This document shows, piece by piece, positions 9,019-20,000 of a stretch of 20,000 nucleotides of DNA (position 1 is its first letter; each line of letters begins with the position of its first letter). Below the pieces are notes generated by a model that did no database searches, was not told the origin of the DNA, and saw nothing but the letters and a program-made list of their open reading frames with translations. This DNA comes from an uncultured virus (IMG/VR IMGVR_UViG_3300025653_000029). Taxonomy: Duplodnaviria; Heunggongvirae; Uroviricota; Caudoviricetes. The stretch lies in IMG/VR virus record IMGVR_UViG_3300025653_000029. One strand, 5' to 3'. The position numbers were made by a program, and so were the translations under genes.

Positions 9019-9569
9019 GGAATCTCTCCATATGGCACATCATTTAGCCATGTTACAAGAACAAATTTTTCTCCTGATTTTACTGGCATAGCCTTGTGAG
9101 TGCAGACATAGTTTGATGGAAAGAATACCGCTGAAGGAGTCTGAGGCTTTATACTCACATCATAATATTGAAAGTATGTCTGCCCACCCTCATATTCGGT
9201 CGGGTTTAAATAAACAATGACTGAGGTAGTTCTATATATATTCCACGCAGCATCTGAATGATAATCGAAATATTGTCCTTGTTCGTATTTGAGCAGACTA
9301 ACCCTTTCTGATGAACGTAGATCCGCATTTGGATGATTTGCACAATAGTCTTGAGAGTAAGAAATAAGTAAGTCTTTTAGCTTATTTTTTATATCGGGGC
9401 TAAACCATTTAAAGGGAGTTTCTGTACTTGTTCTTTGAGGCTGAGTAGAGACTTCCCCTGCAAGAAGAGAGTCTTTCCACATTGGCTTTATTCTTTGTGA
9501 GAAAGCAATAATATCTTTGGCAAGTTCGGGTGGGAAATCATATACTTCAAATCCTGGTGGATATATCAT
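8988..9569 (-). CDS. 2OG-Fe(II) oxygenase (prolyl-4-hydroxylase-like)
   Basis: LLKYEQGQYFDYHSD (HxD), SVIVYLN..YEGGQTYF, FPSNY..TH.A.PV.SGEK. Confidence 0.92.
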   Translation of the reverse strand: MIYPPGFEVYDFPPELAKDIIAFSQRIKPMWKDSLLAGEVSTQPQRTSTETPFKWFSPDIKNKLKDLLISYSQDYCANHPNADLRSSERVSLLKYEQGQYFDYHSDAAWNIYRTTSVIVYLNPTEYEGGQTYFQYYDVSIKPQTPSAVFFPSNYVCTHKAMPVKSGEKFVLVTWLNDVPYGEIPHCPSKFSIK

Positions 9570-10338
9570 TATCGAATCTTTCCTTTCCTTTAATATATAT
9601 CTCGTAATCTGGGCTTTTGTCGTAGAACTTTTGTCTGGGAAATAAACAGTCGTATGGCTTACCCACAGCCTTATCTTTGTTGTCGTTGGTGTTGCCTCCT
9701 GCCACCTTTATTCCCCACAAGCTATTTAACAGGTCTATGGTAGCAGACATGTTTTCCGTTATGCCAACGGAATCAAAAGAATCAACGTCATCAAAATAAA
9801 CGGGGTAGGTAGGATTATCTACTGACCACTCTAAGTAATCATCTACACTCATATCATACTTATGAATGTTATATGTCTTGTCATAAAAAGCAGTTGATGG
9901 ACCATCGTCAGTAAATCCTCCCCAACCAGAAATTCCCATTATCTTTCCTGTGTGGTGAGCTAAAAACTCAAGTTTGCGAGGATCGGTTAAATCCCAATTT
10001 TTAAAAATGCTCAATGCGTTCTGTGCCTGTCGCTTGATGAAATAGTATTCAGAAGCAGCCCTGTCATAAGGATCGCGGAGAACAGTAAAGTAGGGGGTAG
10101 AGTTATTCGTAATCTCCTTTATGAGAGAAAGAGTCATATGAGAAGAGCCAGGAGTCTTAGAGTTTCTTAGCCGTGCTCGTCCTAAAGAATAAGGGGAATA
10201 ATAATGAGAAGGCACGGGGGTTAGAGAAAGATATGTACTTCCTGTCTTAGGTACAAACACTATCCCTATAGATGTATTAATAGAAGGAGAAGATCTAGAT
10301 ATGGTGGTTATTTCTTTGTATTTTTTGGCTTCATTCAT
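9547..10338 (-). CDS. sulfotransferase-family protein (Sulfotransfer_2-like)
   Basis: 5'-PAPS motif FVPKTGSTYL and 3'-PAPS motif FTVLRDPYDRAASEYY. Confidence 0.82.
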   Translation of the reverse strand: MNEAKKYKEITTISRSSPSINTSIGIVFVPKTGSTYLSLTPVPSHYYSPYSLGRARLRNSKTPGSSHMTLSLIKEITNNSTPYFTVLRDPYDRAASEYYFIKRQAQNALSIFKNWDLTDPRKLEFLAHHTGKIMGISGWGGFTDDGPSTAFYDKTYNIHKYDMSVDDYLEWSVDNPTYPVYFDDVDSFDSVGITENMSATIDLLNSLWGIKVAGGNTNDNKDKAVGKPYDCLFPRQKFYDKSPDYEIYIKGKERFDNDISTRI

Positions 10339-10524
10339 GATAAATAAGTATATCAAATTGTTGCATAAAAAGATAGTGTAATTATATTATTACACATAAT
10401 GGTGTGTTGTGGAGGGAAATGGGTGATTGTGGGTTTGTTACCAAATCGTAATACTTTTGCGACAATTCTGCGACATTTGTATATAAAAGTATGCAATTTA
10501 TATGCTAAAAGCAATCAAAATAAA

Positions 10525-11052
10525 TTATTTTTCTAAAATATCTATTGGGCCTTGACATGTGGGGGAATATGTGATAGCTGCTTCAATAGCTTCATTGATT
10601 CTTATATGGGGAGATTGATCTGTATTACTATATAGGCATCCATAGGCATATGAAGACCCTGATCCTATTGATACTTCATTATATTCTATACATTGAAAAT
10701 CAGTAAGATCTATTTCATATACCTTTCCCTTTACCCCTACAATAAATCCTGCATTATTGTCATCATCATCAGGTAGTTTTATATTATTATCTGATATAAA
10801 GGAGCGGAGCTTTGGTATAAATACCTGCAGCATATGTCTATCTATATTATGAGTCTTGCCGACAGGGGGGAATTCAAAATTATATACAACAGCTTGACCT
10901 ATACCACTATTACCAGCATATCCAATAAGATATGGACCACATTCAAATATTTTTGGGCGGGTAGAAGAAACAATGGTAGAAGAATCACTATGTCCTCTAT
11001 CTCCTCCTATATATACCTTACCTCCTGATGCTATAGCTACTATACAAGTCAT
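10525..11052 (-). CDS. proteasome-beta/HslV-like Ntn hydrolase
   Basis: M-T-C-I-V start giving N-terminal Thr nucleophile, 'IGGD', 'PKIF', 'IGYAG', 'SIGSGSSYAYG', 'AIEAA'. Confidence 0.85.
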   Translation of the reverse strand: MTCIVAIASGGKVYIGGDRGHSDSSTIVSSTRPKIFECGPYLIGYAGNSGIGQAVVYNFEFPPVGKTHNIDRHMLQVFIPKLRSFISDNNIKLPDDDDNNAGFIVGVKGKVYEIDLTDFQCIEYNEVSIGSGSSYAYGCLYSNTDQSPHIRINEAIEAAITYSPTCQGPIDILEK

Positions 11053-11153
11053 GAAAAGATCCAGGATAAACCAAGCACCATCGTAATCATAAATATAAAA
11101 AAGAAGAACGCGCCTGCTATAAATGTAGTAATAATATCATTACCTTTTTGCAT
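11049..11153 (-). CDS. 34-aa single-TM protein (MQKGNDIITTFIAGAFFFFIFMITMVLGLSWIFS)
   Basis: GGGAGG RBS; ATGA-coupled to the protease gene. Confidence 0.65.
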   Translation of the reverse strand: MQKGNDIITTFIAGAFFFFIFMITMVLGLSWIFS

Positions 11154-11181
11154 ATATCCTCCCTAGCAAATTCTACCAGCT

Positions 11182-11294
11182 TTCCAGGAATTTTACAAGT
11201 CCTTCGTAATCCCCTTTTGTATATTGGGGCGCGTAGAACTTTCCAGGAATTTTGGACATTCTTCGTAATAGTTCTATTTGGGGTGCCGCGCCCC
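11182..11294 (+). repeat. tandem pair of CCAGG-N15-TCGTAA-CGCG-box elements (copies 1, 2)
   Basis: CCAGG 11184/11243, TCGTAA 11204/11263, GGGGCGCG 11226-33 and inverted CGCGCCCC 11287-94. Confidence 0.9.
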
Positions 11295-11381
11295 GCTCCT
11301 CACCCACATTCCCCATCATGATATTTTTCCCTTGCACAATATTCTGCTGCCACAAATTCATCTAGGCAATATGTATCAATC

Positions 11382-11591
11382 TCATGTTGTGTGAAGATCA
11401 TTGTTGATCCTATCCATTTCTATTTCATCTGCAATATCTTCTAGCATGTAGACAATACCCCACAAGATATTATCCCCGTCATCCCAGATAAGTTCTATTA
11501 GTTCTTGTAGTTGATTTTTGAGAAGTTTAGGATCAATAGGGCCAACTTCTACTGATGCCCCCGCTGTTCCTCTTGCTGTTACCATCACCAT
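11382..11591 (-). CDS. hypothetical protein
   Basis: Start likely ATG 11591 after GGGAG; the upstream extension runs through a hairpin. Confidence 0.6.
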   Translation of the reverse strand: MVMVTARGTAGASVEVGPIDPKLLKNQLQELIELIWDDGDNILWGIVYMLEDIADEIEMDRINNDLHTT

Positions 11592-11612
11592 TATTACTCC
11601 CTTGGCGAATGC

Positions 11613-11638
11613 CCCCCACGGCCCATACTCCGTGGGGG
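11613..11638. terminator. GC-rich intergenic hairpin (possible actinobacterial-type terminator without U tract)
   Basis: CCCCCACGG-8 nt-CCGTGGGGG, perfect 9-bp stem just after the stop at 11650. Confidence 0.55.
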
Positions 11639-11649
11639 ACACTCTGTTG

Positions 11650-11898
11650 TTAGTCTAGCAGATAGTCTTTGCTGTATGGGTCGAACGCTGCCTTGTCATC
11701 GGGCATATCTACTCCGTAGAGTTCCATATTATGATCTATCCCGTCTGCTAGGTTTCTTGCGTTCCAAACTAACTGCTTGGGTTGCTGCACTATGAATAGT
11801 GGTATCTGATACTTCCATTCACTTGGCATTACCCTGTTATCTGCGAATATGTCTATCAACTTGTATGCAATAGACTTGGCATTTATCCATGTTGCCAT
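11650..11898 (-). CDS. hypothetical protein
   Basis: Start MATWINAK at 11898 after AGGAGG. Confidence 0.75.
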   Translation of the reverse strand: MATWINAKSIAYKLIDIFADNRVMPSEWKYQIPLFIVQQPKQLVWNARNLADGIDHNMELYGVDMPDDKAAFDPYSKDYLLD

Positions 11899-11917
11899 AG
11901 ACCCACCTCCTGAGTAG

Positions 11918-11946
11918 ATGATACACCAAGGGGCTGACACAATCAA
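11918..11946 (-). promoter_or_regulatory. promoter with TGTCAG-N10-TATCAT (PafBC/RecA-NDp-like) plus TTGATT -35
   Basis: Exact spacing; overlapped by hairpin 11930-11957. Confidence 0.75.
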
Positions 11947-11972
11947 GTGCCAGCCCCCACTAGAAAGGTGAT

Positions 11973-12131
11973 CTACTTGGAAGTGATCTTGGGAGCCTTC
12001 CGCAGAGCGGTAAGCGAAACGTTGTCCACGAACCGACCCTGGTCACGGATCACCACGCGGTCAGACGAACCGAAACGGGTGTCCCACTTCTCAAGGTAGG
12101 CGTAGGTACGACGGTTGTTGCGCTTTGACAT
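11973..12131 (-). CDS. small basic protein (52 aa, MSKRNNRRTYAYLEKWDTRFG...), missed by ORF track
   Basis: AAGGAG RBS, GC3-rich codons, own promoter TTGACA-N17-TAGAAT at about 12168-12197. Confidence 0.8.
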   Translation of the reverse strand: MSKRNNRRTYAYLEKWDTRFGSSDRVVIRDQGRFVDNVSLTALRKAPKITSK

Positions 12132-12181
12132 GTGTTTCTCCTTTTGTAGTAATTACTTACAGGTGATATTCTACTGTATCC

Positions 12182-12607
12182 CTAGACCGCTGTCAATACC
12201 TGCGGGTAGGAAATTTGTGAATGGAATACATGCTGACCATCTTTGTATTCCAATACTGTCATTGACTCATCATCCAGAATGTAAACATATTCGATAAAAC
12301 AATCTGGAATATCATTAGATGAGATAGTTAGTGGATCACTATCACGGTAGGCAATGCCATAGTCAGATACAACAGCGAACCTACCATCTTGCTGCCATTC
12401 ATTGAGAGTTTCACGCTCACCTGACAACACAGACCAGCCCTGAGGGTTCCAGTCTATGACGACATTGCGAACACGATCAACACCCTTGCGATAGATCAAG
12501 TCTAACAAGACTGGCACTCTAGCCTCGGGGTATCCGTCAAAGTGAACATAGCGACCCTCCCAACCATTGTCAGCAGTTCGCCTTGCTACACATGAACGAG
12601 TGCTCAT
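12182..12607 (-). CDS. conserved phage hypothetical protein (YxHxDGYP family)
   Basis: MSTRS...GRYVHFDGYPE...IEYVYI pattern seen in phage early regions. Confidence 0.8.
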   Translation of the reverse strand: MSTRSCVARRTADNGWEGRYVHFDGYPEARVPVLLDLIYRKGVDRVRNVVIDWNPQGWSVLSGERETLNEWQQDGRFAVVSDYGIAYRDSDPLTISSNDIPDCFIEYVYILDDESMTVLEYKDGQHVFHSQISYPQVLTAV

Positions 12608-12813
12608 GCCTCTACCTCCATTACATCCATGCTGTCATAGTAGATATCTGATTGTATCCAATCAGGCTCACACTCAAAACCCTCGGCATCCTCTATGTAG
12701 GAGGTTGGCGTGGCAGAGGAAGCAACTAGATCCTTTGCCTGATCCTCGTCCTCTGCTAAGACTACAACCTGAAAGTCATTCAGCATTTGATAACTAACTA
12801 GATACTTGCGCAT
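12604..12813 (-). CDS. small acidic protein (V.A.xxxxA family)
   Basis: Coupled ORF; similar pattern to 13678-13851 and 15052-15246. Confidence 0.75.
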   Translation of the reverse strand: MRKYLVSYQMLNDFQVVVLAEDEDQAKDLVASSATPTSYIEDAEGFECEPDWIQSDIYYDSMDVMEVEA

Positions 12814-13459
12814 TGGCTAGAGCCTCCATCTTGGCTGGACAATCATCAAACATGTATTCTACATCATCAGGGAAGAATTTGCAAACACAGGTGGTATCCA
12901 ATGCTTCATGATCTGCGTGGCTTTCTGGAATATCCCACTCTTCCCAACTAGTTATTTCACCATTCTGGAATTCATACTCACCACCCCAGCCCTGCTCTTC
13001 ATCGTAGCGATGAGTGAATGAAACGGTGGGGAATTGCTCAGACAGTTCCAGCATCATTTCATCCCACGGTGGCCCCCACGGGGACTCAAAATGATAAGTG
13101 AGTTGCCCTCTGCCCTCTCCGTCTGGACACCTCTCCATGTCTACCCTAGAAGCGTCCCACTTCACGCCCCAATGAGTATTGTTCCAGTTGTACCAGTTGC
13201 CAGCAGTATTACCAACACGCTCACCTTTGATAGTTCCATTAGTGCCATAGTATTCCTCTTCACTCACATTGTAGGGGGGAAGAAAGGGATTACGAAGGGA
13301 CATGTATGTAAATTCCACAGGCTCAATATCATAGTAATCAGTCCTTGTTTCTTTATCCCACTTGTTGATCCTGATTTCCATACGCAGGAACTCTTGCAAC
13401 TTGTCAAGGTCTTCCTTGCTACCGTGACAATGCAATGAATTGTAGACCCAGTTAGGCAT
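12794..13459 (-). CDS. DUF1281/YubB-like ferredoxin-fold protein
   Basis: MPNWVYN start, WYNWNNTHWGVKWDA, FESPWGPP signature; GGAG RBS; promoter TTGACA-N17-TAGAGT at about 13489-13517. Confidence 0.8.
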   Translation of the reverse strand: MPNWVYNSLHCHGSKEDLDKLQEFLRMEIRINKWDKETRTDYYDIEPVEFTYMSLRNPFLPPYNVSEEEYYGTNGTIKGERVGNTAGNWYNWNNTHWGVKWDASRVDMERCPDGEGRGQLTYHFESPWGPPWDEMMLELSEQFPTVSFTHRYDEEQGWGGEYEFQNGEITSWEEWDIPESHADHEALDTTCVCKFFPDDVEYMFDDCPAKMEALANAQVSS

Positions 13460-13518
13460 AACCACTCCATCCATTAGTTGATAGGGGTACTCTACCATTC
13501 CACTATTGAGTTGTCAAG

Positions 13519-13591
13519 TGCCCCCAGCAGGACTTGAACCTGCGACCTGCGGATTAAAAGTCCGTAGCTCTACCAACTGAGCTATAGGGGC
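13519..13591 (-). tRNA. tRNA-Lys (UUU)
   Basis: GCCCCTA/TGGGGGC acceptor, AGCTCAGTTGGTAGAGC D-arm, loop CT-TTT-AA, GGTTCAAGTCC T-arm; no encoded CCA. Confidence 0.95.
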
Positions 13592-13597
13592 TAGAAG

Positions 13598-13671
13598 TTG
13601 GGCGGGTGGGACTTGAACCCACGACCGTCAGTATATAAGACTGATGCTCTAACCTGCTGAGCTACCGCCCA
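13598..13671 (-). tRNA. tRNA-Ile (UAU)
   Basis: TGGGCGG/CCGCCCA acceptor, TCAGT/ACTGA anticodon stem, loop CT-TAT-AT, GTGGG-TTCAAGT-CCCAC T-arm, discriminator A. Confidence 0.92.
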
Positions 13672-13677
13672 GGGGAA

Positions 13678-13851
13678 CTAGATTATCTCTATCTCTAGAG
13701 ACTCTTCATCTAGTTCTACACCTATAGTCTGTGCATCTTCACTATCAAAGTCATGAGATATCCATTTATTCAGAGCATCCCGTTTGTTGTCTGCCTCAAT
13801 AACTAGATTGATAGTGTCAACCTCTTGCCAGGTCAATAGGTACTGAGCCAT
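13678..13851 (-). CDS. small acidic protein (57 aa, MAQYLLTWQEVDTINLVIEADNKRDAL...), missed by ORF track
   Basis: TAATG-coupled, GGGAG RBS. Confidence 0.75.
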   Translation of the reverse strand: MAQYLLTWQEVDTINLVIEADNKRDALNKWISHDFDSEDAQTIGVELDEESLEIEII

Positions 13852-14141
13852 TAGATTCTCCCCAATACATCACGAAAACCAAGGTCATAGACAAAACGCT
13901 CTGAGTCATTCCATGCTGTCTCGCCATAGAATAACTTTTGCTGCCACTTGGAATCTTTACCCATCTTGTATCTCACCTTGTAGAAGTCAGGGAAGGGGTA
14001 GCCAAATTGTACGATGACTGATCCACCATACATACCTCGCCAATCCTCCTCAATCTCGTCTGTAAAGATAGTTTTCCATTCCGAAACTTGCTTGACACTA
14101 GGACGCTTGCTAGGGCGGTATGTCCAATAGTCTGTGTTCAT
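13851..14141 (-). CDS. hypothetical protein
   Basis: 96 aa, KLFYGETAW.D.ER; coupled. Confidence 0.8.
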   Translation of the reverse strand: MNTDYWTYRPSKRPSVKQVSEWKTIFTDEIEEDWRGMYGGSVIVQFGYPFPDFYKVRYKMGKDSKWQQKLFYGETAWNDSERFVYDLGFRDVLGRI

Positions 14142-14341
14142 GCTACTGCGCCTCCCATGGCTAGGTTATACTGATACCAATCTTGTGTGTAGAGCACAAA
14201 GTCTACATCATCAGACCGCAGGGTGTCAAGGTAGTCGTCTAATTCATCTGCCTCAACTACCCTCAAGAAATTATCTTGAGAGTCATATACGTCCCAATAG
14301 AAAGGCTCTGCTCCCCAATCTATTTCATATAGTTTGATCAC
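14138..14341 (-). CDS. hypothetical acidic protein
   Basis: 4-bp overlap coupling on both ends. Confidence 0.75.
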   Translation of the reverse strand: MIKLYEIDWGAEPFYWDVYDSQDNFLRVVEADELDDYLDTLRSDDVDFVLYTQDWYQYNLAMGGAVA

Positions 14342-14544
14342 AGTTCATTTCCATTCTCATCTTGGAAGATAAGGTTAGACAGACCACCAAAGTCCTCTGC
14401 CACCCATTCCAGAATGAATTCTAGAACATCGTCCACATCTTGTGGAATCCATTCTGCATTATCCTGATTCAGGTCCTGGATAATGGACGGTACATGATAA
14501 GTAACGGTCTTGATAACGTTGATGCGTTCGGGTAAGGTGTTCAC
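14338..14544 (-). CDS. hypothetical acidic protein
   Basis: Coupled ORF ending LIFQDENGNEL. Confidence 0.75.
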   Translation of the reverse strand: MNTLPERINVIKTVTYHVPSIIQDLNQDNAEWIPQDVDDVLEFILEWVAEDFGGLSNLIFQDENGNEL

Positions 14545-14828
14545 TTTGCCTCCTGGATATCTACCATCTTGTTTGCAAGTGCTTGGAAGAATCTACTACG
14601 ATTAGGGTCATCTGTCAAGGACGCAAGATCAACCGCCAGCATTCTTGTGGCAGCAGTAAACCCCTTGATGAAGTCTACATTAGTTTGATATTCAGCGGGT
14701 GTAAAGTCATCCATGTAAACATCTAGTTCCATGCCAAGAGCAGTAACCTTGTCAATCATCATATTGAGATAATCCTCCATGGACACATACATCTCACCAT
14801 CATGGTCTAGAACTCTACCGTTATGCAT
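14541..14828 (-). CDS. hypothetical protein
   Basis: Coupled ORF, GGAGG RBS. Confidence 0.75.
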   Translation of the reverse strand: MHNGRVLDHDGEMYVSMEDYLNMMIDKVTALGMELDVYMDDFTPAEYQTNVDFIKGFTAATRMLAVDLASLTDDPNRSRFFQALANKMVDIQEAK

Positions 14829-15052
14829 TATGCCTCCTGGGGTACGGGCAGGGTATCAAGGACAGATGTTAGCACGAAATGGAGGCTAAAGTCAAGTGCC
14901 TCCTCATCACTACCCTCCTCAGGCCAATGCCAACCTGGGAACACATTCTTATCATAGATAGTTCCATCAGTCATGACAGCACGCAGGGTATCGTTGTCAA
15001 TAGACCACATCTTAGTTGCATCATCAAACATCAGCATATAGTGATATTGCAT
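14828..15052 (-). CDS. hypothetical protein
   Basis: TAATG-coupled ORF. Confidence 0.75.
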   Translation of the reverse strand: MQYHYMLMFDDATKMWSIDNDTLRAVMTDGTIYDKNVFPGWHWPEEGSDEEALDFSLHFVLTSVLDTLPVPQEA

Positions 15053-15246
15053 TAGTCCTCCTCAGGCTCAGAGACACAAGATACATCAACATTATCCCAG
15101 GGAATAGAAAAGCCAGCAGGCATGACAGCATAATAGTCACCATCAAACTCCAACTGTGCCATTTCCAATGCTTCCTGATATGATTCAGCCTCAATGTCAA
15201 TAGTGTCACATACAGTCATGACACCCTCAAATGAATAGGTACCCAT
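15052..15246 (-). CDS. small acidic protein (IEAESxxEA family)
   Basis: Coupled ORF, GGAGG RBS. Confidence 0.75.
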   Translation of the reverse strand: MGTYSFEGVMTVCDTIDIEAESYQEALEMAQLEFDGDYYAVMPAGFSIPWDNVDVSCVSEPEED

Positions 15247-15657
15247 TTACTGAACCTCCACCTCTACAAGTTGGATATCTGCATACTCAATATTAATGTC
15301 GCTGTAATTTATGTTGTCAATGACAACACTCAGATCACTCTCAAGTTCATCAATGTTGTATCCCAGGGGAACCTTCACTTCCACATCACCCTCGGCACGG
15401 ACATGAATACTAACCCTGCGATTCAGTTCACGATTAAAGTAACCAGCCAGTTCTTCACCAACCGCTTCCTCAATCTCATCATCAACAACGAATTGCATCA
15501 AACCTTCCATGAAGGATTCGATCTGACGCTCCAAGTAGATCTTGGTATCAACGGTGCTAGAAAGGCTCTTGCAGACCTTATCAAGTTCGTTTTGCAGTTC
15601 CTCAATCTTGGCTTGCATATATTGGGGGGTATAAGGATTGATAGTTGTAGTTTCCAT
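15247..15657 (-). CDS. hypothetical acidic protein with N-terminal coiled coil
   Basis: GAAAGG RBS; first gene after promoter TTGACA-N17-TAGGAT (about 15686-15715). Confidence 0.8.
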   Translation of the reverse strand: METTTINPYTPQYMQAKIEELQNELDKVCKSLSSTVDTKIYLERQIESFMEGLMQFVVDDEIEEAVGEELAGYFNRELNRRVSIHVRAEGDVEVKVPLGYNIDELESDLSVVIDNINYSDINIEYADIQLVEVEVQ

Positions 15658-15719
15658 AACATACCTTTCACTAGTTAATAGACATGATCCTATAACAGAA
15701 TATAGAAGGTGTCAAGAGT

Positions 15720-15819
15720 TTCCAGGAATATTTTTGGTTCATCGTAAAAGAGGGGTTGTGGGGGCGCGTTCCAGGAATTTTTATGTTCCATCGTAACTAA
15801 GCTCTTTGTGACGCGCCCC
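15720..15819 (+). repeat. tandem pair of CCAGG-N15-TCGTAA-CGCG-box elements (copies 3, 4)
   Basis: CCAGG 15722/15771, TCGTAA 15742/15791, GGGGCGCG 15761-68, CGCGCCCC 15812-19. Confidence 0.9.
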
Positions 15820-15823
15820 GTTT

Positions 15824-15899
15824 TGGCGACCCTGATGGGATTTGAACCCACGACCTCCACCGTGACAGGGTGGCGAGCACTCCGCTGCTCTACAGGGCC
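15824..15899 (-). tRNA. tRNA-Asp (GUC) with encoded CCA
   Basis: GGCCCTG/CAGGGTC acceptor, CCACC-CTGTCAC-GGTGG anticodon arm, GGTTCAAATCC, 3' GCCA. Confidence 0.95.
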
Positions 15900-15900
15900 A

Positions 15901-15930
15901 GGGGGCAGTTTATTGTCATGCCCAGGACTA
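15901..15930 (-). ncRNA. small H-type pseudoknot motif (copy C)
   Basis: TAGTC-CTGGGCAT-GACAA-TAAAC-TGCCC; covaries with copies at 18942 and 19084. Confidence 0.6.
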
Positions 15931-15934
15931 GCAA

Positions 15935-16930
15935 TTATGCGAATGCAACTTCTTTCACAGTACGCAAAATGTTGTTCTTTGCACTAGTGGTCGTGGCATC
16001 AAAGCCAGACGCAGCAGCAAGGACACCCTCTGCATTACCACCGCGAGGATTGCGATACCAATCCAGACGCTCCGTGAGTGCGTTGTATGCACCCCACGCA
16101 GTACCTTTGATATTCACGCAGGTAGGACCATTGTAGATATCATTGAGAGTGTCAATCTTGTTCTCCCACTTGGTCATGCTACCCTTTGCGTCCTTCTCAG
16201 GCTTGGGGTAAACAGCCGTGATGATCTCAAAGAATTGCTTGTCGTTGATCTCCTTGGAAATCATTTCACTAGCCATCTTGTCAAACTCATCAAGGTACTT
16301 GTGAGTCAGACCAAGAGCCTCGCGTGCAGCGGCAACCTTACCCTGCACAGTCTGAGTGTGACGGATACGGAAGGACTGCTTTGCACGATTACCCTTGCGA
16401 CCAACGGCAGCGTTGAGAGTGTTCTGGCAGACAACACGCACAGGGGTAACACTAGCCTGAATAGCAAGCGAACCATCATGCGAGGTGTGAACCAACAGGT
16501 AGTTGTTCACCTTGTCACCACGACCCTTGGGGTCAAGGTCAGTCTGACGCTCAAGGGCGAGTGAACCGAACACAACGGTTCCGTTCTTGATACTGCCAGC
16601 GGTTTCCCAGCGACCACCGTCAAGAAGGTTGTCACCAAAGGTGAACAGTTCCTCGTTCTGGAGAACGTTGTAACGCTCACCGACCAGACCAAGCACATCG
16701 TCCTCGCCGTCAAACGGGTTGGTACGAACAGTCGCAAAGTAATCACGATGCGAACGGCCAGGAAGGTCTACAGCCTCTAGGCGTACATTCCAGCCTGCCA
16801 AGTGTGCGAGTTCCAGCATTTCCTGAGTGCTGACAGCCTCGTCAATGACAGTTCCCAAGCCATGCCAAGCGGGTTCCCGCAGGGAAGCAAAGGAAGCCAT
16901 GTCGCCGTACTGCTCCAACATGTGACCCAT
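15935..16930 (-). CDS. DUF932 / phage-plasmid-like protein (TIGR03299 type)
   Basis: REPAWHGLG, VGERYNVLQNEE.F, WETAGS, YLL..TSHDGS, TPVRVVCQNTL, IRHT, GTAWGAYNALTE..D. Confidence 0.92.
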   Translation of the reverse strand: MGHMLEQYGDMASFASLREPAWHGLGTVIDEAVSTQEMLELAHLAGWNVRLEAVDLPGRSHRDYFATVRTNPFDGEDDVLGLVGERYNVLQNEELFTFGDNLLDGGRWETAGSIKNGTVVFGSLALERQTDLDPKGRGDKVNNYLLVHTSHDGSLAIQASVTPVRVVCQNTLNAAVGRKGNRAKQSFRIRHTQTVQGKVAAAREALGLTHKYLDEFDKMASEMISKEINDKQFFEIITAVYPKPEKDAKGSMTKWENKIDTLNDIYNGPTCVNIKGTAWGAYNALTERLDWYRNPRGGNAEGVLAAASGFDATTTSAKNNILRTVKEVAFA

Positions 16931-16962
16931 ATCTATCTCCTATCGTTGTTGTTGATAAGATA

Positions 16963-16992
16963 ACAATACACCACGGGTCTGACAGTTGTCAA
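16963..16992 (-). promoter_or_regulatory. promoter TTGACA-N18-TATTGT with internal TGTCAG-N10-TATTGT
   Basis: Upstream of the DUF932 RBS (AGGAG). Confidence 0.8.
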
Positions 16993-17020
16993 GAGTTTCC
17001 AGATAATTTTTTATTAGACT

Positions 17021-17073
17021 TTTCGGGAAATTAGAACATGCTTCGTAAATAGGGCGTGGCGGGGCGCGGCCCC
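17021..17073 (+). repeat. degenerate CCAGG(TCGGG)-N15-TCGTAA-CGCG-box element (copy 5)
   Basis: TCGGG 17023-27, TCGTAA 17043-48, GGGGCGCGGCCCC 17061-73. Confidence 0.8.
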
Positions 17074-17077
17074 TAGC

Positions 17078-17209
17078 TCACCCACACCACCTACATCGCA
17101 CATCAAAAAGGTATTTAGTTTCTGTCAGAGTTACAATATCTCCACACTCTTGGCAAAGGTATTTATATTGCACTAGAGGCTTGATAGGGGCTTGATCAAT
17201 GTGTTTCAC
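17078..17209 (-). CDS. 43-aa Zn-ribbon protein (..YKYLCQECG..VRCRWCG)
   Basis: GTGA-coupled to a 36-codon ORF at 17206-17316, itself coupled to the upstream gene. Confidence 0.6.
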   Translation of the reverse strand: MKHIDQAPIKPLVQYKYLCQECGDIVTLTETKYLFDVRCRWCG

Positions 17210-17312
17210 TTTACTACCCCCGCCTTTATTCTTTCTACTACCTCTGATCCATGTTCGATTTGCATGGTAGTCAAAATGTAATTGTAGTCTGATTTAGATA
17301 TGGTAAGTGTTA

Positions 17313-17861
17313 TCACTCTGCACTCCCTCGCTTTACAATCCAGATCAAAGCCTGAGCAGTACGAGGACTAAGACCATGTTCATTAGCCACAGAGGTAACA
17401 GCGTCAGACAGAGTATTATATAGGCCCTTGGAGGGTGAGTCGGTCGGAGCATTAGCAGCCCTGCACATCCAAACGTCAATAACGACAGCGTTAGTGTCGC
17501 CAGCGATAGCCCTAGCGAATGCATTAGTCTTTTGTCCTTTCAGAGCATCGAAACCTTGTTCCAATGCAGCATTAGCCATTTTCAGATTATTTGATAGACC
17601 CGCGACAGGCTTGCCATTAGCAAACGCATATGCTTTAGCAACGTTAGATGCCCAACGCTCACGGGGAGAGAATGCACTAACAATAGATGCACCAACCTCA
17701 AGTGAGGTTCCAAGAATCTCAGCAACGTCCTCGGCAACCTCTTGTGCCTCAAAGTACCACACAGATGCCTGCTCAACTTGTGCGAGGGTAGCCTGTAGAA
17801 TGCAGTTGTTATACAGGTACTCGGCGGTAGTTATTTCCATGGGATGAATAATTGTGTTCAT
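17313..17861 (-). CDS. HhH-GPD DNA-glycosylase-like phage protein
   Basis: WY, SAFSPRERW..N, G.KT.AF, VVIDVWMCRA (cf. the VDVW motif of HhH-GPD enzymes), AQALIW; leaderless after TTGACA-N17-TAGGTT. Confidence 0.6.
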   Translation of the reverse strand: MNTIIHPMEITTAEYLYNNCILQATLAQVEQASVWYFEAQEVAEDVAEILGTSLEVGASIVSAFSPRERWASNVAKAYAFANGKPVAGLSNNLKMANAALEQGFDALKGQKTNAFARAIAGDTNAVVIDVWMCRAANAPTDSPSKGLYNTLSDAVTSVANEHGLSPRTAQALIWIVKRGSAE

Positions 17862-17878
17862 GAGAGAAACCTATCAAA

Positions 17879-18016
17879 CTAGTCGGAGAATGTCAAGGAC
17901 TTATGCTTATTTTTTCTAGAATACTTTTTCTTATTCTTGTGAGGCTGGGCAGCATTAGAACGACGAATGTCCATGACCCTACGCTGATGACCGTTGCTAC
18001 GGCGTGATGTTTTCAT
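17879..18016 (-). CDS. 45-aa highly basic protein (MKTSRRSNGHQRRVMDIRRSNAAQPHKNKKKYSRKNKHKSLTFSD)
   Basis: Leaderless ATG 6 nt after TAAGTT of TTGATT-N17-TAAGTT; missed by ORF track. Confidence 0.7.
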   Translation of the reverse strand: MKTSRRSNGHQRRVMDIRRSNAAQPHKNKKKYSRKNKHKSLTFSD

Positions 18017-18036
18017 GAGATAAACTTAGCAGATAT

Positions 18037-18089
18037 TTCCAGGGAAATCAAGGGGTCTTCGTAACGATATGATAACGGCGGGGCGCGGC
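18037..18089 (+). repeat. CCAGG-N15-TCGTAA-CGCG-box element (copy 6)
   Basis: CCAGG 18039, TCGTAA 18059, GGGGCGCG 18080-87. Confidence 0.9.
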
Positions 18090-18145
18090 AGCAACCATTC
18101 TGTTACATACCTGTTACCATTTTGTTATTAAATAACCCTATACAA

Positions 18146-18167
18146 TGTCAGATGGGTATGGTAAGGT
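18146..18167 (+). promoter_or_regulatory. TGTCAG-N10-TAAGGT promoter (PafBC/RecA-NDp-like)
   Basis: Exact spacing, extended -10 TGn, upstream of AAGGAG RBS. Confidence 0.75.
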
Positions 18168-18199
18168 CAAGCCACGGAAATAGAAAAAGGAGAGCAAAA

Positions 18200-18397
18200 A
18201 TGTCAACTAAGTTTGATATTGATGTGCAATTGACAGGCACAGATGGAAATGCTTTTGCCCTCATGGGCAAGGTGTCAAAGGGTATCCTTGATGCTGGTGG
18301 CAGTAAGACAGATGTTGTTGCCTTCCAAGATGAGGCCATGAGTGGCGACTACAATCATTTGCTGCGTACTTGCATGGCGTGGGTGAATGTGCAATGA
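18200..18397 (+). CDS. conserved small phage protein (G.DGNAF...SGDY..LL family)
   Basis: Start MSTKFD at 18200 after AAGGAG. Confidence 0.8.
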   Translation: MSTKFDIDVQLTGTDGNAFALMGKVSKGILDAGGSKTDVVAFQDEAMSGDYNHLLRTCMAWVNVQ

Positions 18398-18603
18398 CAA
18401 TCGAACGCATTGAGGCATATGCCCTAGAGGAACAAGATCAGATCTTTGTCAATGGTTCTGTCTACCGCGTGGTTGGCATTGATCCAACAGATGAGGGATA
18501 CCGCTTCCGCTTGATTGACGAGGAAGGCGATGTGAAGTATCTCACAGTAGAGGACACAGAAAAGTTGCCCGTGGTTATTGACTTTCTCTCAGCAATAGGC
18601 TAA
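18394..18603 (+). CDS. small beta-rich hypothetical protein
   Basis: ATGA-coupled start MTIERIE. Confidence 0.75.
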   Translation: MTIERIEAYALEEQDQIFVNGSVYRVVGIDPTDEGYRFRLIDEEGDVKYLTVEDTEKLPVVIDFLSAIG

Positions 18604-18640
18604 GATAAACAAGGTACAACAACAAACGAAAGGTAACACT

Positions 18641-18778
18641 ATGACGATCACCGTTGGTTCCGAATACACCACTCGCAAGTCAGGCGTGACGGGAGTTGTG
18701 CAGGAGATTATCGAAAAGCCGTTTGGCTATGTCCTGCGTCTTGATGTGGACGGGGTAGAAAGATTTACAACCGTCTAA
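18641..18778 (+). CDS. 45-aa beta-rich protein (MTITVGSEYTTRKSGVTGVVQEI...RFTTV)
   Basis: GAAAGG RBS; clean ORF missed by track. Confidence 0.75.
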   Translation: MTITVGSEYTTRKSGVTGVVQEIIEKPFGYVLRLDVDGVERFTTV

Positions 18779-18784
18779 CTAATC

Positions 18785-18941
18785 TTGGGAATATGCAACC
18801 GTAGGTTCATGATTTCTTTATTTCCTTTCTGGTTCATGAAACTACATCGACTTGCTTTCCCAAATAGACATAGGGACAGTCTAAGTCATAGACAGCGTGA
18901 CTGTAAACCTTGACGTACATAGCAGGGTAACCATATGTCTA
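18785..18941 (+). ncRNA. putative structured ncRNA(s): long hairpin plus three-way junction
   Basis: Stems 18785-91/18857-63, 18806-12/18834-40, 18865-72/18934-41, 18876-81/18899-904, 18907-12/18923-28; no long ORF. Confidence 0.45.
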
Positions 18942-18970
18942 ATATCCTGAGCATGATATAAAACTGCTCA
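18942..18970 (+). ncRNA. small H-type pseudoknot motif (copy A)
   Basis: ATATC-CTGAGCAT-GATAT-AAAAC-TGCTCA. Confidence 0.6.
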
Positions 18971-18994
18971 ACTTCTCATGATAAAATAAAAAAT

Positions 18995-19066
18995 ATGCCT
19001 CAGGTGCTGGGCACAGACGAGCCTCCAAAACTTGTCTCGCTAGGTTCGATTCCTAGATGGGGTGCG
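18995..19066 (+). tRNA. atypical tRNA-Trp-like element (anticodon CCA)
   Basis: Canonical T-arm CTAGG-TTCGATT-CCTAG and loop CT-CCA-AA, but tiny D-arm (GTGC-TGG-GCAC), extended anticodon stem, G-U-rich acceptor. Confidence 0.55.
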
Positions 19067-19083
19067 CTATCTAAATAGCATAA

Positions 19084-19110
19084 GTCCTGAGCATGACAAA
19101 AAACTGCTCA
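19084..19110 (+). ncRNA. small H-type pseudoknot motif (copy B), followed by T7 tract
   Basis: GTC-CTGAGCAT-GAC-AAAAAAC-TGCTCA, 140 bp after copy A. Confidence 0.6.
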
Positions 19111-19126
19111 CATTTTTTTGGGAATA

Positions 19127-19180
19127 TTCCAGGGTAATTCTTAAAGGTTCGTAACAATGTGGTAACGGGGGCGCGGCCCC
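19127..19180 (+). repeat. CCAGG-N15-TCGTAA-CGCG-box element (copy 7)
   Basis: CCAGG 19129, TCGTAA 19149, GGGGCGCGGCCCC 19168-80. Confidence 0.9.
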
Positions 19181-19312
19181 TCACGGCTCGTCATAGTAGT
19201 CGTCATAGTCCATGCGAGCAGCACGGGCATAGTAGTAGTCCATGTCAGGGACGTAGTTGCAGCCAAGGCCATCGGTGTGACCGCAGCAGGGGTAGTCTTC
19301 GCATCGGGCCAT
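19181..19312 (-). CDS. 43-aa protein with RCEDYPCCG motif
   Basis: Start MARCED at 19312 after GAGG; promoter TGTCAG-N10-TATGGT at 19341-19362. Confidence 0.75.
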   Translation of the reverse strand: MARCEDYPCCGHTDGLGCNYVPDMDYYYARAARMDYDDYYDEP

Positions 19313-19362
19313 GAGGTGTCCTCTCGTTGTTGGTAGCCAAACCATACCACACCCCTCTGACA

Positions 19363-19416
19363 TTCCAGGGTTTCTTCGTAAGGTTCGTAACAAGGTCAGC
19401 TTGGGGGCGCGGCCCC
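19363..19416 (+). repeat. CCAGG-N15-TCGTAA-CGCG-box element (copy 8)
   Basis: CCAGG 19365, TCGTAA 19385 (extra copy 19376), GGGGCGCGGCCCC 19404-16. Confidence 0.9.
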
Positions 19417-19551
19417 CTAGTCCCAGCGGGACAGTTGGGCCTCAGTCCATGCGAGCATTCCAGGATCAGCATCCTCAAAGCCCACCTCAAAGTCAATGAA
19501 ATCCTCAAACTCAGGGGTATCGACGCAGATGGTGTCCTTGATCTTAGCCAT
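19417..19551 (-). CDS. 44-aa acidic protein (MAKIKDTICVDTPEFEDFIDFEVGFED...RWD)
   Basis: GAGGAG RBS; promoter TGTCAG-N10-TATGGT at 19580-19601; missed by ORF track. Confidence 0.75.
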   Translation of the reverse strand: MAKIKDTICVDTPEFEDFIDFEVGFEDADPGMLAWTEAQLSRWD

Positions 19552-19609
19552 GTGATCTCCTCAACTAGTAGGTGGTGAAACCATATCAGATGGGTCTGAC
19601 AATCGCAAA

Positions 19610-19661
19610 TTCCAGGGTGGTTTCGTAACCTTCGTAACGCAAGAGCTTCAGGCCGCGCCCC
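19610..19661 (+). repeat. CCAGG-N15-TCGTAA-CGCG-box element (copy 9)
   Basis: CCAGG 19612, TCGTAA 19632 (extra copy 19623), CGCGCCCC 19654-61. Confidence 0.9.
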
Positions 19662-19742
19662 GCCTGTGGATAACTTGTGAATATCTTCGTGACATATTCG
19701 TTATAAAACCTGTCCGATTTGTATGCATTTCCAGAGCCTGAA

Positions 19743-19764
19743 TGTCAGACCCCCATGATAGCCT
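19743..19764 (+). promoter_or_regulatory. TGTCAG-N10-TAGCCT promoter (PafBC/RecA-NDp-like)
   Basis: Exact spacing, TGn extension, followed by AGAAAGGAG RBS. Confidence 0.75.
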
Positions 19765-19789
19765 TGGGGCAAGTTAGAAAGGAGTAACG

Positions 19790-19930
19790 ATGTTTGTTTA
19801 TCTCGTTACCACGAATGACGGGTTCGTGACCCGTGTCACCACCGCTGGTGACCCTACTGATCACCCCACTTTCTGGGGCCGCGTTGCTAACGTGGAAACC
19901 CTTGGGGAGGCTGATCTCCATGCGGTCTAA
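19790..19930 (+). CDS. 46-aa hypothetical protein (MFVYLVTTNDGFVTRV...LHAV)
   Basis: AGAAAGGAG RBS, own promoter. Confidence 0.75.
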   Translation: MFVYLVTTNDGFVTRVTTAGDPTDHPTFWGRVANVETLGEADLHAV

Positions 19931-20000
19931 TCCAATGGCTCAAGCCATCGCCAACTACACCCGTGTAGTCAATGATTGTTTCGGGGGAGTGTCAGACCCC

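Follow-up and report, generated by a model that had tools for sequence, protein, structure and literature searches.

Polar repeat modules between gene cassettes of an uncultured actinobacterial phage as candidate boundary elements

A 20,000-nucleotide stretch of an uncultured virus (IMG/VR IMGVR_UViG_3300025653_000029), hereafter the window, genuinely contains repeat modules of three boxes (A, B and C), clustered and polar. We hold, at about even confidence, that they are boundary elements resembling the PeSLs of T4-type phages, each combining a direction-fixed protein-recognition site (A-B) with a GC hairpin (C), in the terminal-repeat early region of a T5-like phage. The phage is best explained as a relative of the Streptomyces BE-cluster phages (family Stanwilliamsviridae), namely a T5-like siphovirus infecting actinobacteria. 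The source is an uncultured lake phage of actinobacteria.

Results

Box A reads TTCC(A/G)GG, often as a dyad (TTCC-N-GGAA) followed by T-rich DNA, while box B reads TTCGTAA; B begins 21 bp after the start of A, about two helical turns, with a spacer of free sequence. Additional B-like boxes, 9 and 11 bp off, occur in some copies and place all boxes on one face of the helix. Box C is the GC-rich 10-mer GGGGCGCGGC or its complement, usually in a short hairpin, and between B and C the modules fall into subfamilies (AAGAGGGG, AAGAGCT and N-GTAACG types).

The nine copies of the original prediction all hold on the + strand, eight of them exact (CCAGG-N15-TCGTAA starting at 11184, 11243, 15722, 15771, 18039, 19129, 19365 and 19612) and one, at 17023, reading TCGGG with two mismatches. 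The other regularities predicted were also found, namely N15 before TCGTAA with a CGCG core 15-20 nt after it (9/9 copies), and GC boxes (GGGGCGCG in six copies, CGCGCCCC in three) inverted within each tandem pair (11184/11243 and 15722/15771). The count of nine was confirmed but omitted a doubtful exact match at 11061, with which the window holds nine exact matches, all on the + strand, plus the degenerate copy; it also omitted a half-site at 16997 beside that copy and two copies (~20944 and ~22037, both with degenerate A boxes) in the extension, an IMG/VR contig 99.86% identical to the window and reaching 19.3 kb past its right end. The A-B spacing tolerates a change of one nucleotide (N14 at ~22037, N15 elsewhere). 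Allowing up to two mismatches, the window gave 13 matches vs 3.34 +/- 1.89 in 200 shuffles (largest 9; none of the 200 reached 13). The modules and neighbouring features are as follows, G006 being a close relative.

11059..11114, + strand: doubtful tenth match, ATCCAGG-N15-TCGTAA (core 11061) then CGCGCC, without the TT prefix; within a 34-codon ORF of the - strand (11153 down to 11049); present in G006 too, probably conserved there through coding
11182..11233, + strand: module 1, first of a tandem pair; A TTCCAGG 11182-11188, B TTCGTAA 11203-11209, C GGGGCGCG 11226-11233; left neighbour, the - strand promoter (TTGTAA-17-TAGAAT at 11198-11170) and start (11153) of the 34-codon ORF
11241..11295, + strand: module 2; A 11241, B 11262-11268, C inverted CGCGCCCC 11287-11294 in hairpin GGGGTGCCGCGCCCC; homology to G006 stops to the right of C
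15720..15768, + strand: module 3; A 15720, B ATCGTAA 15741-15747, C GGGGCGCG 15761-15768; left neighbour, the - strand promoter TTGACA-17-TAGGAT of gene 15247-15657
15769..15819, + strand: module 4, directly after C of module 3, with which its own inverted C (CGCGCCCC, 15812-15819) pairs in the predicted fold; right neighbour, tRNA-Asp (- strand), 4 nt past the module end
15935..16930, - strand: DUF932 gene, synteny anchor
16955..16992, - strand: DUF932 promoter, TTGACA-18-TATTGT with a TGTCAG box (16983) in PafBC-type register
16997..17073, + strand: module 5, degenerate; half-site TTCCAGA 16997, A-like TTTCGGG 17021, B 17042-17048, C hairpin GGGGCGCGGCCCC 17061-17073, 4 nt from the stop of - strand ORF 17078-17209; the G006 orthologue has a perfect TTCCAGG
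18037..18089, + strand: module 6, at the divergent junction of - strand ORF 17879-18016 and the + strand unit starting at 18201; ATAAC 11 nt after B; C is GGGGCGCGGC, without a good hairpin
19127..19180, + strand: module 7, at a convergent junction after + strand unit 18201-18778, abutting the stop (19181-19183) of - strand gene 19181-19312; TTCTTAA 9 nt upstream of B, GTAAC 11 nt after it; C hairpin GGGGGCGCGGCCCC
19363..19417, + strand: module 8; B doubled (TTCGTAA at 19375 and 19384); C hairpin GGGGGCGCGGCCCCC overlaps the stop of - strand ORF 19417-19551; left neighbour, a - strand PafBC-type promoter at 19361
19610..19666, + strand: module 9, at the divergence point of the - and + gene arms; B doubled (19622 and 19631); C inverted CGCGCCCC 19654-19661 within CAGGC...GCCTG
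19665..19673, - strand: consensus DnaA box (TGTGGATAA on the + strand), directly after module 9
19744..19765, + strand: PafBC-type promoter TGTCAGACCCCCATGATAGCCT, driving + strand gene 19790-19930
11938 (-), 18147 (+), 19361 (-), 19600 (-) and 19991 (+): other PafBC-type promoters in the window
After the ~22037 copy, in the extension: DnaA box pair TTATCCACA and TTGTCCACA

The motif is confined to one region. In the 39.3-kb composite of window and extension, the stretch from 11.18 to 22.1 kb contains all 11 modules, and the remaining 28 kb is free of them; a position-matrix scan gave ten hits of at least 14 bits, all on the + strand and in the same interval, and the 11 octamers GGGGCGCG/CGCGCCCC of the composite are all inside the 11 modules. 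The contig scan gave nine hits on one strand and none on the other.

Relatives repeat this polarity. G006 carries ten matches on one strand and none on the other, and in eight orthologous module pairs between it and the window the boxes are kept while spacers and flanks have changed; N15 is kept even in one G006 tandem pair where the C box of the first module lies inside the spacer of the second. In a distant uncultured lineage (G004), three matches were found at exact stringency vs none on the other strand, and a looser pattern gave nine distinct copies, all co-oriented, within 9.2 kb (~10.6 kb with one more likely copy). The BE phages were compared for the two-box A-B core. In the complete Streptomyces phages Yaboi and Wipeout there are five forward/zero reverse and seven forward/zero reverse core matches, confined to the two terminal-repeat copies except for one conserved one-mismatch off-target per genome; core sites lie at ~0.64 kb and ~11.2-11.6 kb, with other left-end copies at ~0.2 and ~0.59 kb, pointing inward. 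In a further scan of the collection, the core also turned up in five BE-size records (122-136 kb) and one 7-kb fragment. Furthermore, the gene order DUF932, modules, ThyX (~2 kb beyond) is common to the window with its extension, G004 and the BE phages, and DUF932 homologues in Streptomyces BE-cluster phages map within the terminal repeat, 1.2-2.6 kb in from the left end. By synteny, the module cluster probably corresponds to the long direct terminal repeat of the BE cluster.

The modules sit at transcription-unit borders, as predicted, but not at all of them, since strong TTGACA-type promoters of the - strand at 12196, 13517, 14229 and 14618 are without one. Junctions of every kind carry modules (tandem -,-; divergent; convergent; tandem +,+), the coding strands being backed by third-codon-position bias in five of six genes tested. 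All nine predicted copies are co-oriented; the claim that they are so regardless of gene direction rests on few cases, namely one convergent and two divergent junctions, two copies in the + arm (degenerate A) and the BE left-end copies.

Discussion

Fixed spacing with a free spacer, which the original prediction had taken to imply protein recognition on DNA, is kept in relatives and therefore fits such recognition. Since the folds of ten module regions gave no RNA-fold signal (z-scores -0.85 to +0.98), the modules are read as acting as DNA rather than RNA. In this context, the A-B core would be recognised as double-stranded DNA, in one fixed orientation, by a DNA-binding protein or by several copies of it arrayed head to tail; this protein would be conserved in the phage clade or its hosts. 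Pfam gave no DNA-binding domain above cut-off in 31 small ORFs (11.3-23.9 kb) or in larger ones.

Promoters offer another account of the same geometry, which we consider rather unlikely: A-B would belong to a non-sigma-A class (TTCCAGG as -35, 16-nt spacer, CGTAA as -10) firing rightward from the left end, with RNA polymerase carrying a host alternative sigma or a phage factor. Such a promoter might silence early genes through antisense RNA, feed transcription into rightward genes, or drive DNA entry by transcription, as happens in T7. Two unlike boxes at fixed spacing (+/-1) with a free spacer are typical of promoters, and the arrangement of 7 nt, 16 nt and CGT also fits an ECF-type sigma promoter; moreover, orientation is strict, three BE copies point inward from positions 0.2-0.66 kb inside the physical left end, and a BE tandem pair stands 250-350 nt upstream of a + strand HNH gene. 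In the G004 lineage, five of nine copies have TTGAC(A/T) right after B and (T/C)AAGA(T/A) 16-17 nt on, on the module strand (as in TTGACA-16-TAAGAT), one of them flagged by the scan as the best sigma-70-type site of its region. RNA-run contigs also span modules (e.g., 19013-19300), although contigs reveal neither strand nor DNA carry-over; transcription starting at modules is possible. However, neither box resembles sigma-A elements, and the 29 sigma-70-type promoter hits include no A-B site, whereas they do include the - strand TTGACA promoters adjoining modules. The co-occurring phage sigma factor that had been proposed did not appear, with no Sigma70_r2 or r4_2 match in four related records (G001, G004, estimated at 84% complete, G005 and G006) and, for Sigma70_r4 only, one sub-threshold match, in a 108-codon frame, in two complete Streptomyces BE genomes. 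Seven of the 11 copies face genes of the - strand, and with a GC hairpin coming within 15-20 nt, their product would be antisense or very short RNA; an A that is often a dyad and a B repeated in helical phase are more typical of transcription-factor-like binding sites.

Under the boundary-element explanation, the genes are driven by separate, gene-oriented promoters of sigma-A and PafBC types; indeed, the direction of the DUF932 promoter follows its gene, not the modules. The C hairpin would most likely be the 3' end of the adjacent unit. Box C abuts or overlaps the stops at 19181 and 19417 and is separated by 4 nt both from the stop at 17078-17080 and from tRNA-Asp, with short hairpins predicted at 17061, 19167 and 19403. 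These hairpins have only 5-6 bp and no T tails, two to four of the 11 C boxes are without a convincing one, and T-tailed terminators are not enriched (6 found vs 6.2 expected; none at a C box).

Proximity to a genome end, also proposed originally, gains from the cultured relatives but not from the right end of the window, beyond which the near-identical contig continues; the link is plausible because the core sits in the long terminal repeat of two complete cultured relatives. We think it improbable, though, that the modules are polar terminal-repeat cis-sites for a DNA transaction instead of transcription, such as staged entry (like the T5 injection stop), packaging recognition of the terminal repeat, control of replication start or forks, or protection of the entering end. 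In the two BE genomes the core lies near both terminal-repeat edges in constant direction relative to the physical end, and the cluster is of matching size, 11 kb here and 9.2 kb as scored in G004 vs repeats of 12.2-12.4 kb in BE phages. Two copies here are immediately followed by consensus DnaA boxes, and in G004, which has nine boxes in 440 bp, they lie around two or three copies. In the untranslated stretch of their terminal repeat, T5-like phages have conserved repeats together with eight DnaA boxes, and a model put forward by Davison as a proposal makes these the injection stop; the likeness to our modules is one of architecture only. Against this, the modules here are dispersed among genes across 11 kb and not gathered in one non-coding block, only two of 11 copies adjoin DnaA boxes, and the terminal repeat of the window phage is deduced from synteny.

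The prediction that the elements shuffle cassettes was partly borne out. Between modules 8 and 9, G006 carries a replacement cassette, and the breaks fall inside both modules; homology to G006 ends 13 nt after C of module 2, and module 4 with its tRNA-Asp is absent from relatives (joint 15748->15903), being missing in G006 and in the contigs of two RNA runs. Only ~5 of 18-20 homology-block edges, however, fall within 30 nt of a module, and the indels 12179-12658, 17208-17319 and 18444-18618 are away from modules. It is very unlikely that the modules are simply a spreading or decaying repeat (MITE-like or gene-conversion copies) with no function beyond a terminator/promoter neighbourhood and a direction shared by history: the subfamilies suggest copying among sites and indel breakpoints fall at copies, but the same boxes and spacing with free spacers persist across lineages of 35-55% G+C and at orthologous sites, N15 survives even in the overlapped G006 pair, and terminal inverted repeats, target duplications and a transposase are all absent.

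The original prediction had recognised no named element with this architecture. For the polar A-B core this stands, no match to it having been found in the published literature; the whole modules, in turn, resemble PeSLs, described as promoter/terminator-type boundary cassettes that mediate shuffling in T4-type phages. In brief, we favor modules at which a putative bound protein would mark and insulate unit borders, through an effect on RNA polymerase or the DNA end, and which, as dispersed direct repeats, double as joints for some cassette gains, losses and replacements, PeSL-fashion.

Results

Occurrence and orientation of the modules

The modules form a real, strongly non-random and conserved set, in which a TTCCAGG-type box (A), a TTCGTAA box (B) and a GC-rich box with a CGCG core (C) follow one another. 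Reading of the window and a pattern scan recovered the predicted A-B core, CCAGG-N15-TCGTAA, exactly at eight sites, and the degenerate ninth copy was present with two mismatches; moreover, the gap of 15-20 nt claimed between TCGTAA and CGCG was found in 9/9 copies, and the inversion of the GC box was seen within both tandem pairs. With up to two mismatches allowed, the window held 13 matches; 200 shuffles averaged 3.34 +/- 1.89, and 13 was reached in 0/200. No close cultured phage was found for the window at the DNA level, the sole match being a tRNA; a composite of 39,317 bp was read as the window plus 19.3 kb added rightward from a 28,171-bp IMG/VR contig (overlap 11147-20000, 99.86%), and it contained two further modules.

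Matches to the A-B core in the composite
11184, + strand, module 1, exact
11243, + strand, module 2, exact
15722, + strand, module 3, exact
15771, + strand, module 4, exact
17023, + strand, module 5, two mismatches
18039, + strand, module 6, exact
19129, + strand, module 7, exact
19365, + strand, module 8, exact
19612, + strand, module 9, exact
~20944, + strand, module 10, overlapping the last codons of a + gene, box A weakened and box B doubled
~22037, + strand, module 11, N14 spacer, box A weakened and box B doubled
11061, + strand, exact match within a 34-codon - strand ORF, without the GGGGCGCG box
6429, + strand, one mismatch, within a gene
2798, - strand, two mismatches
11579, - strand, two mismatches

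The last four matches are doubtful or due to chance and were not counted as modules. The box C octamer was GGGGCGCG in 6/9 window copies and CGCGCCCC in the other three (3/9), and either octamer occurred 11 times in the 39.3-kb composite, always inside a module (11/11). Since no modules were found in 22.1-39.3 kb of the composite and none convincing in 1-11 kb, the cluster spans ~11 kb. The + strand orientation claimed for every copy held for 11/11 copies, across - units, a + unit and both arms: genes of the composite lie on the - strand left of ~19.7 kb, except for a small + unit (18201-18778), and on the + strand to the right. Third-codon-position bias, measured against a close uncultured relative (G006), backed the coding strand in 5/6 tested genes, with no clear bias at 18201-18397.

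In window 1-11000 and in the extension at 27-37 kb, many genes are of auxiliary type. They include genes for a cytochrome P450 and an APH-type phosphotransferase, two methyltransferase-like genes and one sulfotransferase-like, a row of several 2OG-Fe(II) oxygenase genes, and genes for a FabG-like reductase, a DenV-like glycosylase, an endonuclease VII and an HslV-like peptidase.

Anatomy of the boxes

Box A reads TTCCAGG(A/G), often as the dyad TTCC-A-GGAA with T-rich DNA after it; the start of box A lies 21 bp from that of box B. A second TTCGTAA stands 9-10 bp upstream of B in four copies, with a degenerate TTCTTAA in a fifth (19129), and GTAAC or ATAAC is found 11 bp downstream of B in three copies; these distances (9-10, 11 and 21 bp) place all boxes on one helix face. 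Box C, GGGGCGCGGC or its complement, touches or runs into two stop codons (19181 and 19417); a gap of 4 nt separates it from a third stop (17078-17080), and one of the same length from the end of tRNA-Asp. The 43-codon ORF at 19181-19312 (-) begins with MARCEDYPCCGH, a small Cys-rich motif that occurs in actinophage proteins, and shows 78% identity over 32 residues in a distant uncultured lineage (G004).

A GC hairpin was predicted or visible at box C in ~7/11 copies. Ten folds of module regions gave no RNA fold signal (z -0.85 to +0.98), with nothing beyond short hairpins of 5-6 bp at C and a single long-range helix in which modules 3 and 4 pair through their C boxes, and Rfam over 10500-20000 returned only three tRNAs and a sub-threshold match opposite a tRNA. 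These results rule out the whole module as a structured RNA, and the A-B core is consequently read as DNA. No C box was among the six T-tailed terminator-like sites detected, a number without enrichment (6.2 +/- 2.4 expected); tail-less terminators exist in actinobacteria, and box C may still fit such a type.

A hairpin without an A-B core, CCCCCACGG...CCGTGGGGG, lies at window 11613-11638, right after the stop of a - gene (11650-11946), and two identical contigs from RNA runs end at 11649 and 11654. In two RNA runs the cover of 10.7-20 kb exceeded that of 3.3-10 kb, as contigs from which expression, strand and ends are not readable.

Neighbouring promoters

A sigma-70-type scan placed strong promoters on the - strand at 12196, 13517, 14229, 14618, 15715 and 16992, each with a perfect TTGACA, and a TGn-TAGAAT promoter on the same strand at 11198; no A-B site was among its 29 matches or was flagged on the + strand. 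A gene-oriented promoter of sigma-A or PafBC type adjoins ~6/11 modules, the A-B core itself being no such promoter. As read from the sequence, box A stands between 6 and 28 nt away from the nearest - strand -10 box, and such a promoter is missing at the second members of tandem pairs, at the convergent junction (19129) and at the + arm copies; this variable distance and the promoter-less copies rule out A-B as a fixed-distance upstream part of the - strand promoters. The reverse strand of A-B as a sigma-A promoter (TTACGA ... CCTGGAA) was rejected by eye and by the same scan, and SigH/SigR-type (GGAAT-N18-GTT), sigma-54 and sigma-28 promoters, LexA sites, integron attC and Chi were set aside, since by their consensuses they appear to have the wrong spacing or boxes.

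Furthermore, the stretch from 11.9 to 22.4 kb contains ten sites of the pattern TGTCAG-N10-TAnnnT, and every one is oriented toward its gene.

PafBC-type promoters in the composite
11938, - strand, window
16983, - strand, window
18147, + strand, window
19361, - strand, window
19600, - strand, window
19744, + strand, window
19991, + strand, window
~21237, + strand, extension
~22206, + strand, extension
~22399, + strand, extension

A looser pattern gave 14 matches, against 5.05 in shuffles. By their sequence, these sites fit the consensus of PafBC (RecA-NDp), which the available part of the source gives as tGTCgg(N10)tA(N3)T, with a -26 element in place of the -35 element (PMC8635444). In G004, 11 strong PafBC-type sites were detected, and 12/14 matches lay on the gene strand. 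This promoter set suggests an actinobacterial host and early genes that may depend on PafBC. Many of the promoters have a TGn extended -10 box, several seem leaderless, and the whole set is co-extensive with the module cluster.

Uncultured relatives and cassette exchange

The relative G006, a contig of 29 kb with 72-96% identity over homologous blocks, bore out the fixed direction, all of its 10 exact matches lying on a single strand. In eight orthologous pairs between the composite and G006 the boxes are kept and the spacers and flanks differ; in a rebuilt tandem pair of G006, box C of the first module lies inside the N15 spacer of the second, with its spacing unchanged. In the distant lineage, to which G005 also belongs, G004 (103.8 kb; CheckV completeness 84%) has nine distinct co-oriented copies within 9.2 kb, which read AAATTC(C/T)(A/G)G ... 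GTCGTAA and carry a different GC hairpin with a AAGATCTT loop. Both ends of G004 fall inside the gene for a DUF932 protein (window 15935..16930, - strand, in our phage), which indicates a permuted, almost closed circle. Single matches in a first scan of the collection were mostly chance matches in high-GC sequence.

The original prediction also raised, as one option, that the elements shuffle gene cassettes, which was borne out in part: several cassette events fall at modules when the composite is compared with G006 and with RNA-run contigs, and other indels lie elsewhere (12179-12658, 17208-17319 and 18444-18618). G006 has another cassette between modules 8 and 9, with both breaks inside modules; homology to G006 stops 13 nt after box C of module 2; module 4 and tRNA-Asp are absent in relatives, with a joint from 15748 to 15903 in two RNA runs; and 18779-19113 is skipped in relatives, the gap ending 14 nt before module 7. 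Overall, ~5 of 18-20 homology-block edges lie <=30 nt from a module, a modest excess. In window 18940-19125, two copies of TCCTGAGCATGAnAnAAAACTGCTCA lie on either side of a tRNA-like stretch (...GGTTCGATTCC...) that neither ARAGORN nor Rfam called as a tRNA, and seven consecutive T come after the second copy; the whole stretch is missing in relatives (joint from 18779 to 19113).

Cultured Streptomyces phages and the terminal repeat

The best matches of the DUF932 protein were in Streptomyces BE-cluster phages, at two places per record and 1.2-2.6 kb from the left end. According to the part of the BE1 genome note available, defined ends and direct terminal repeats of ~11 kb characterise the BE phages, and its authors compared these phages with T5 and SPO1; that part is silent on motifs and promoters (PMC5764925). 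In the complete BE phage Yaboi, a doubled TTCGTAC occurs at 11501 and again at 130319, which implies a terminal repeat of 12,432 bp. The BE core pattern CCSGGRAA-N12-TCGTA, with <=1 mismatch, gave five forward and no reverse matches in Yaboi, and seven forward and none reverse in a second complete BE phage, Wipeout; save for one conserved off-target per genome, they lie in the two repeat copies (at ~0.64 kb and ~11.2-11.56 kb). The confinement of the motif to one region thus holds for the ~11-kb span of our phage and for the terminal repeats of Yaboi and Wipeout, apart from that off-target in each. Matrix scans added BE-phage copies at ~0.2 and ~0.59 kb, and all copies point inward from the left end, flanking a leftward early-gene block; in another scan of the collection, five BE-size records (122-136 kb) and a 7-kb fragment also proved to carry the core. 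The order DUF932, modules and, ~2 kb beyond, ThyX is common to the composite, G004 and the BE phages, and from this synteny we infer that the 11-kb cluster would be a collapsed terminal repeat.

Near the divergent junction, this phage and BE phages share another recurrent motif, TGTCCGATTTG (TGTCCGTTTTG in Wipeout); its complement, AAATCGGACA, follows the left-end tandem modules of the BE phages.

Occurrences of TGTCCGATTTG/TGTCCGTTTTG
19708-19722, window
4399-4508, Yaboi
11418-11783, Yaboi
11195-11555, Wipeout

Most intergenic gaps within 1114-10006 of Yaboi, in the terminal repeat, hold a different conserved module, AAGATCTTTTGACCGGGGCGG, once inverted, which is followed by a GC hairpin with a GAAG-type loop; its GGGGCGG box is similar to box C, and in the G004 modules the hairpin loop reads AAGATCTT.

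Consensus DnaA boxes adjoin two modules, at 19665 and at 22089/22101, and the remaining copies have none.

Consensus DnaA boxes (TTATCCACA, TTGTCCACA)
19665-19673, window
~22089-22109, extension
5819, window
5847, window

Nine DnaA boxes lie within 440 bp among the modules of G004 (reverse strand 7790-8240), interleaved with them in an oriC-like or T5-iss-like arrangement. The stretches that follow modules 9 and 11 look like paralogues.

Discussion

The best reading of these data is that the elements are composite boundary modules, probably peculiar to the early region, of terminal-repeat type, in this phage clade. For their mechanism, we infer that the direction-fixed A-B core would be a protein-recognition site, bipartite and in places multipartite and phased, that the GC hairpin at C would end the adjacent unit, and that genes would be driven by separate, gene-oriented promoters beside the modules. 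Among 31 small ORFs searched with Pfam for a candidate binding protein, no match exceeded the cut-offs.

A serious rival is that A-B is itself a promoter of a sigma-70-family, ECF-like class. ECF sigma promoters have an AAC-type -35 box, 16-17 nt and a CGT-type -10 box, and the modules likewise have two unlike boxes at promoter spacing, since TTCCAG-N17-CGTAAn can be written as CCAGG-N16-CGT, with a tolerance of +/-1 and a CGT core in the downstream box. Moreover, in G004 a TTGACA-16-TAAGAT follows B on the module strand, and three BE-phage copies near the left end face inward. However, the -35-like box has no AAC motif, most modules have no co-oriented gene downstream, and most copies face antisense and run straight into the hairpin; the dyad of A and the phased B repeats resemble sites of transcription-factor-like proteins. 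The phage sigma factor whose co-occurrence the original prediction had raised did not appear: PF04542 and PF08281 matched 0/4 related records, although a very divergent phage sigma could escape such models, and PF04545, the sole model on two BE genomes, reached 15.8 bits, below its cut-off of 24.1.

As a third option, the modules may be sites of DNA transactions on the terminal repeat, such as entry, packaging or replication. In its favor are the confinement of the core to the repeat in BE phages, the DnaA boxes beside two copies here and the nine among the G004 copies; by analogy, the DnaA-box-rich terminal-repeat regions of T5, as far as they are described in the available part of the source, would point the same way (10.1101/866236).

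A far more elaborate proposal, which we consider improbable, is that the A-B-C modules are the cis half of a staged-infection device of T5-like actinophages, by which the phage would mimic DNA damage at defined sites and so set off its early genes. A virion-delivered or very early protein would bind the modules directionally on the first-entering terminal repeat and control the extent of DNA entry or of reading; it would also expose single-stranded DNA at the GC box, through nicks, an extruded hairpin or short R-loops, and this DNA would activate host PafBC at the adjacent PafBC-type early promoters.

Considered as boundary modules, the elements are closest to the PeSL (promoter-early stem-loop) cassettes of T4-type myoviruses, reportedly described by Arbiol et al. 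in 2010. In the available part of a later study, T4-type PeSLs are early-promoter/stem-loop cassettes that serve as joints of indels and replacements (Comeau et al., 2014; PMC4122927). As far as that part goes, both kinds of element are small, composite, conserved motifs placed between small, variable, early-type ORFs, and indels or replacements between close relatives break inside both; a part of the modules also resemble PeSLs in having a stem-loop and an early promoter nearby. Unlike PeSLs, the modules come from another phage lineage and another host phylum, their hairpin has no T tail, their core is restricted to the terminal repeat in cultured relatives, and they add a bipartite A-B core that is not the promoter of the gene; furthermore, the PeSL promoter faces its ORF, whereas the direction of the modules is set by the genome and not by the flanking gene. 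On sequence grounds, the modules are PeSL-like boundary cassettes with an added, putative polar docking site.

The left terminal repeat of T5 has untranslated repeat regions, rich in DnaA boxes, and an injection stop region, according to the portion of the report available (Davison, 2020; 10.1101/866236). From that portion, T5 and the phages studied here appear alike in being large siphoviruses with many tRNAs, in having conserved cis-elements in a direct terminal repeat of ~10-12 kb (a putative one in our phage) with leftward pre-early/early genes, and in the association of some of these elements with consensus DnaA boxes; the T5 elements, however, form three non-coding blocks with inverted repeats and palindromes, whereas the modules are single, dispersed and all direct. 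This comparison is one of architecture and not of sequence, and the functions of the T5 elements and of the modules are both putative. T5-like nick sites at GCGC were considered and set aside; the BF23 paper offers no consensus for them.

Stoperators of cluster A mycobacteriophages (e.g., L5) are single asymmetric sites of 13-14 bp, spread genome-wide, whose direction tracks the transcription of each arm, and they are thought to affect passing RNA polymerase once protein-bound. They share with the modules the occurrence of many short asymmetric sites in short intergenic gaps of actinophages; in contrast, the modules are bipartite, confined to one region and of a single direction across both arms.

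A literature search for TTCGTAAC with 'phage' gave only unrelated papers among the matches listed, and one on actinophage repeats gave nothing relevant to the modules. What is new here is the polar A-B core, its independence from gene direction and, in cultured Streptomyces phages, its confinement to the terminal repeat.

The modules would be a boundary repeat that takes its direction from the genome and not from the genes, and they extend to actinobacterial phages the PeSL idea that regulatory repeats are joints of cassette exchange. In addition, the co-extensive PafBC-type promoters point to a use by the phage of the single-stranded-DNA alarm of its host. Since cultured Streptomyces phages whose ends are mapped carry these boxes too, the proposals can be tested at the bench. 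Should A-B prove to be a docking site confined to the terminal repeat, it would offer a handle on the organisation, insulation and timing of early genes in large, long-repeat siphoviruses, such as T5, SPO1 and the Streptomyces BE phages, and perhaps also on the staging of DNA entry.
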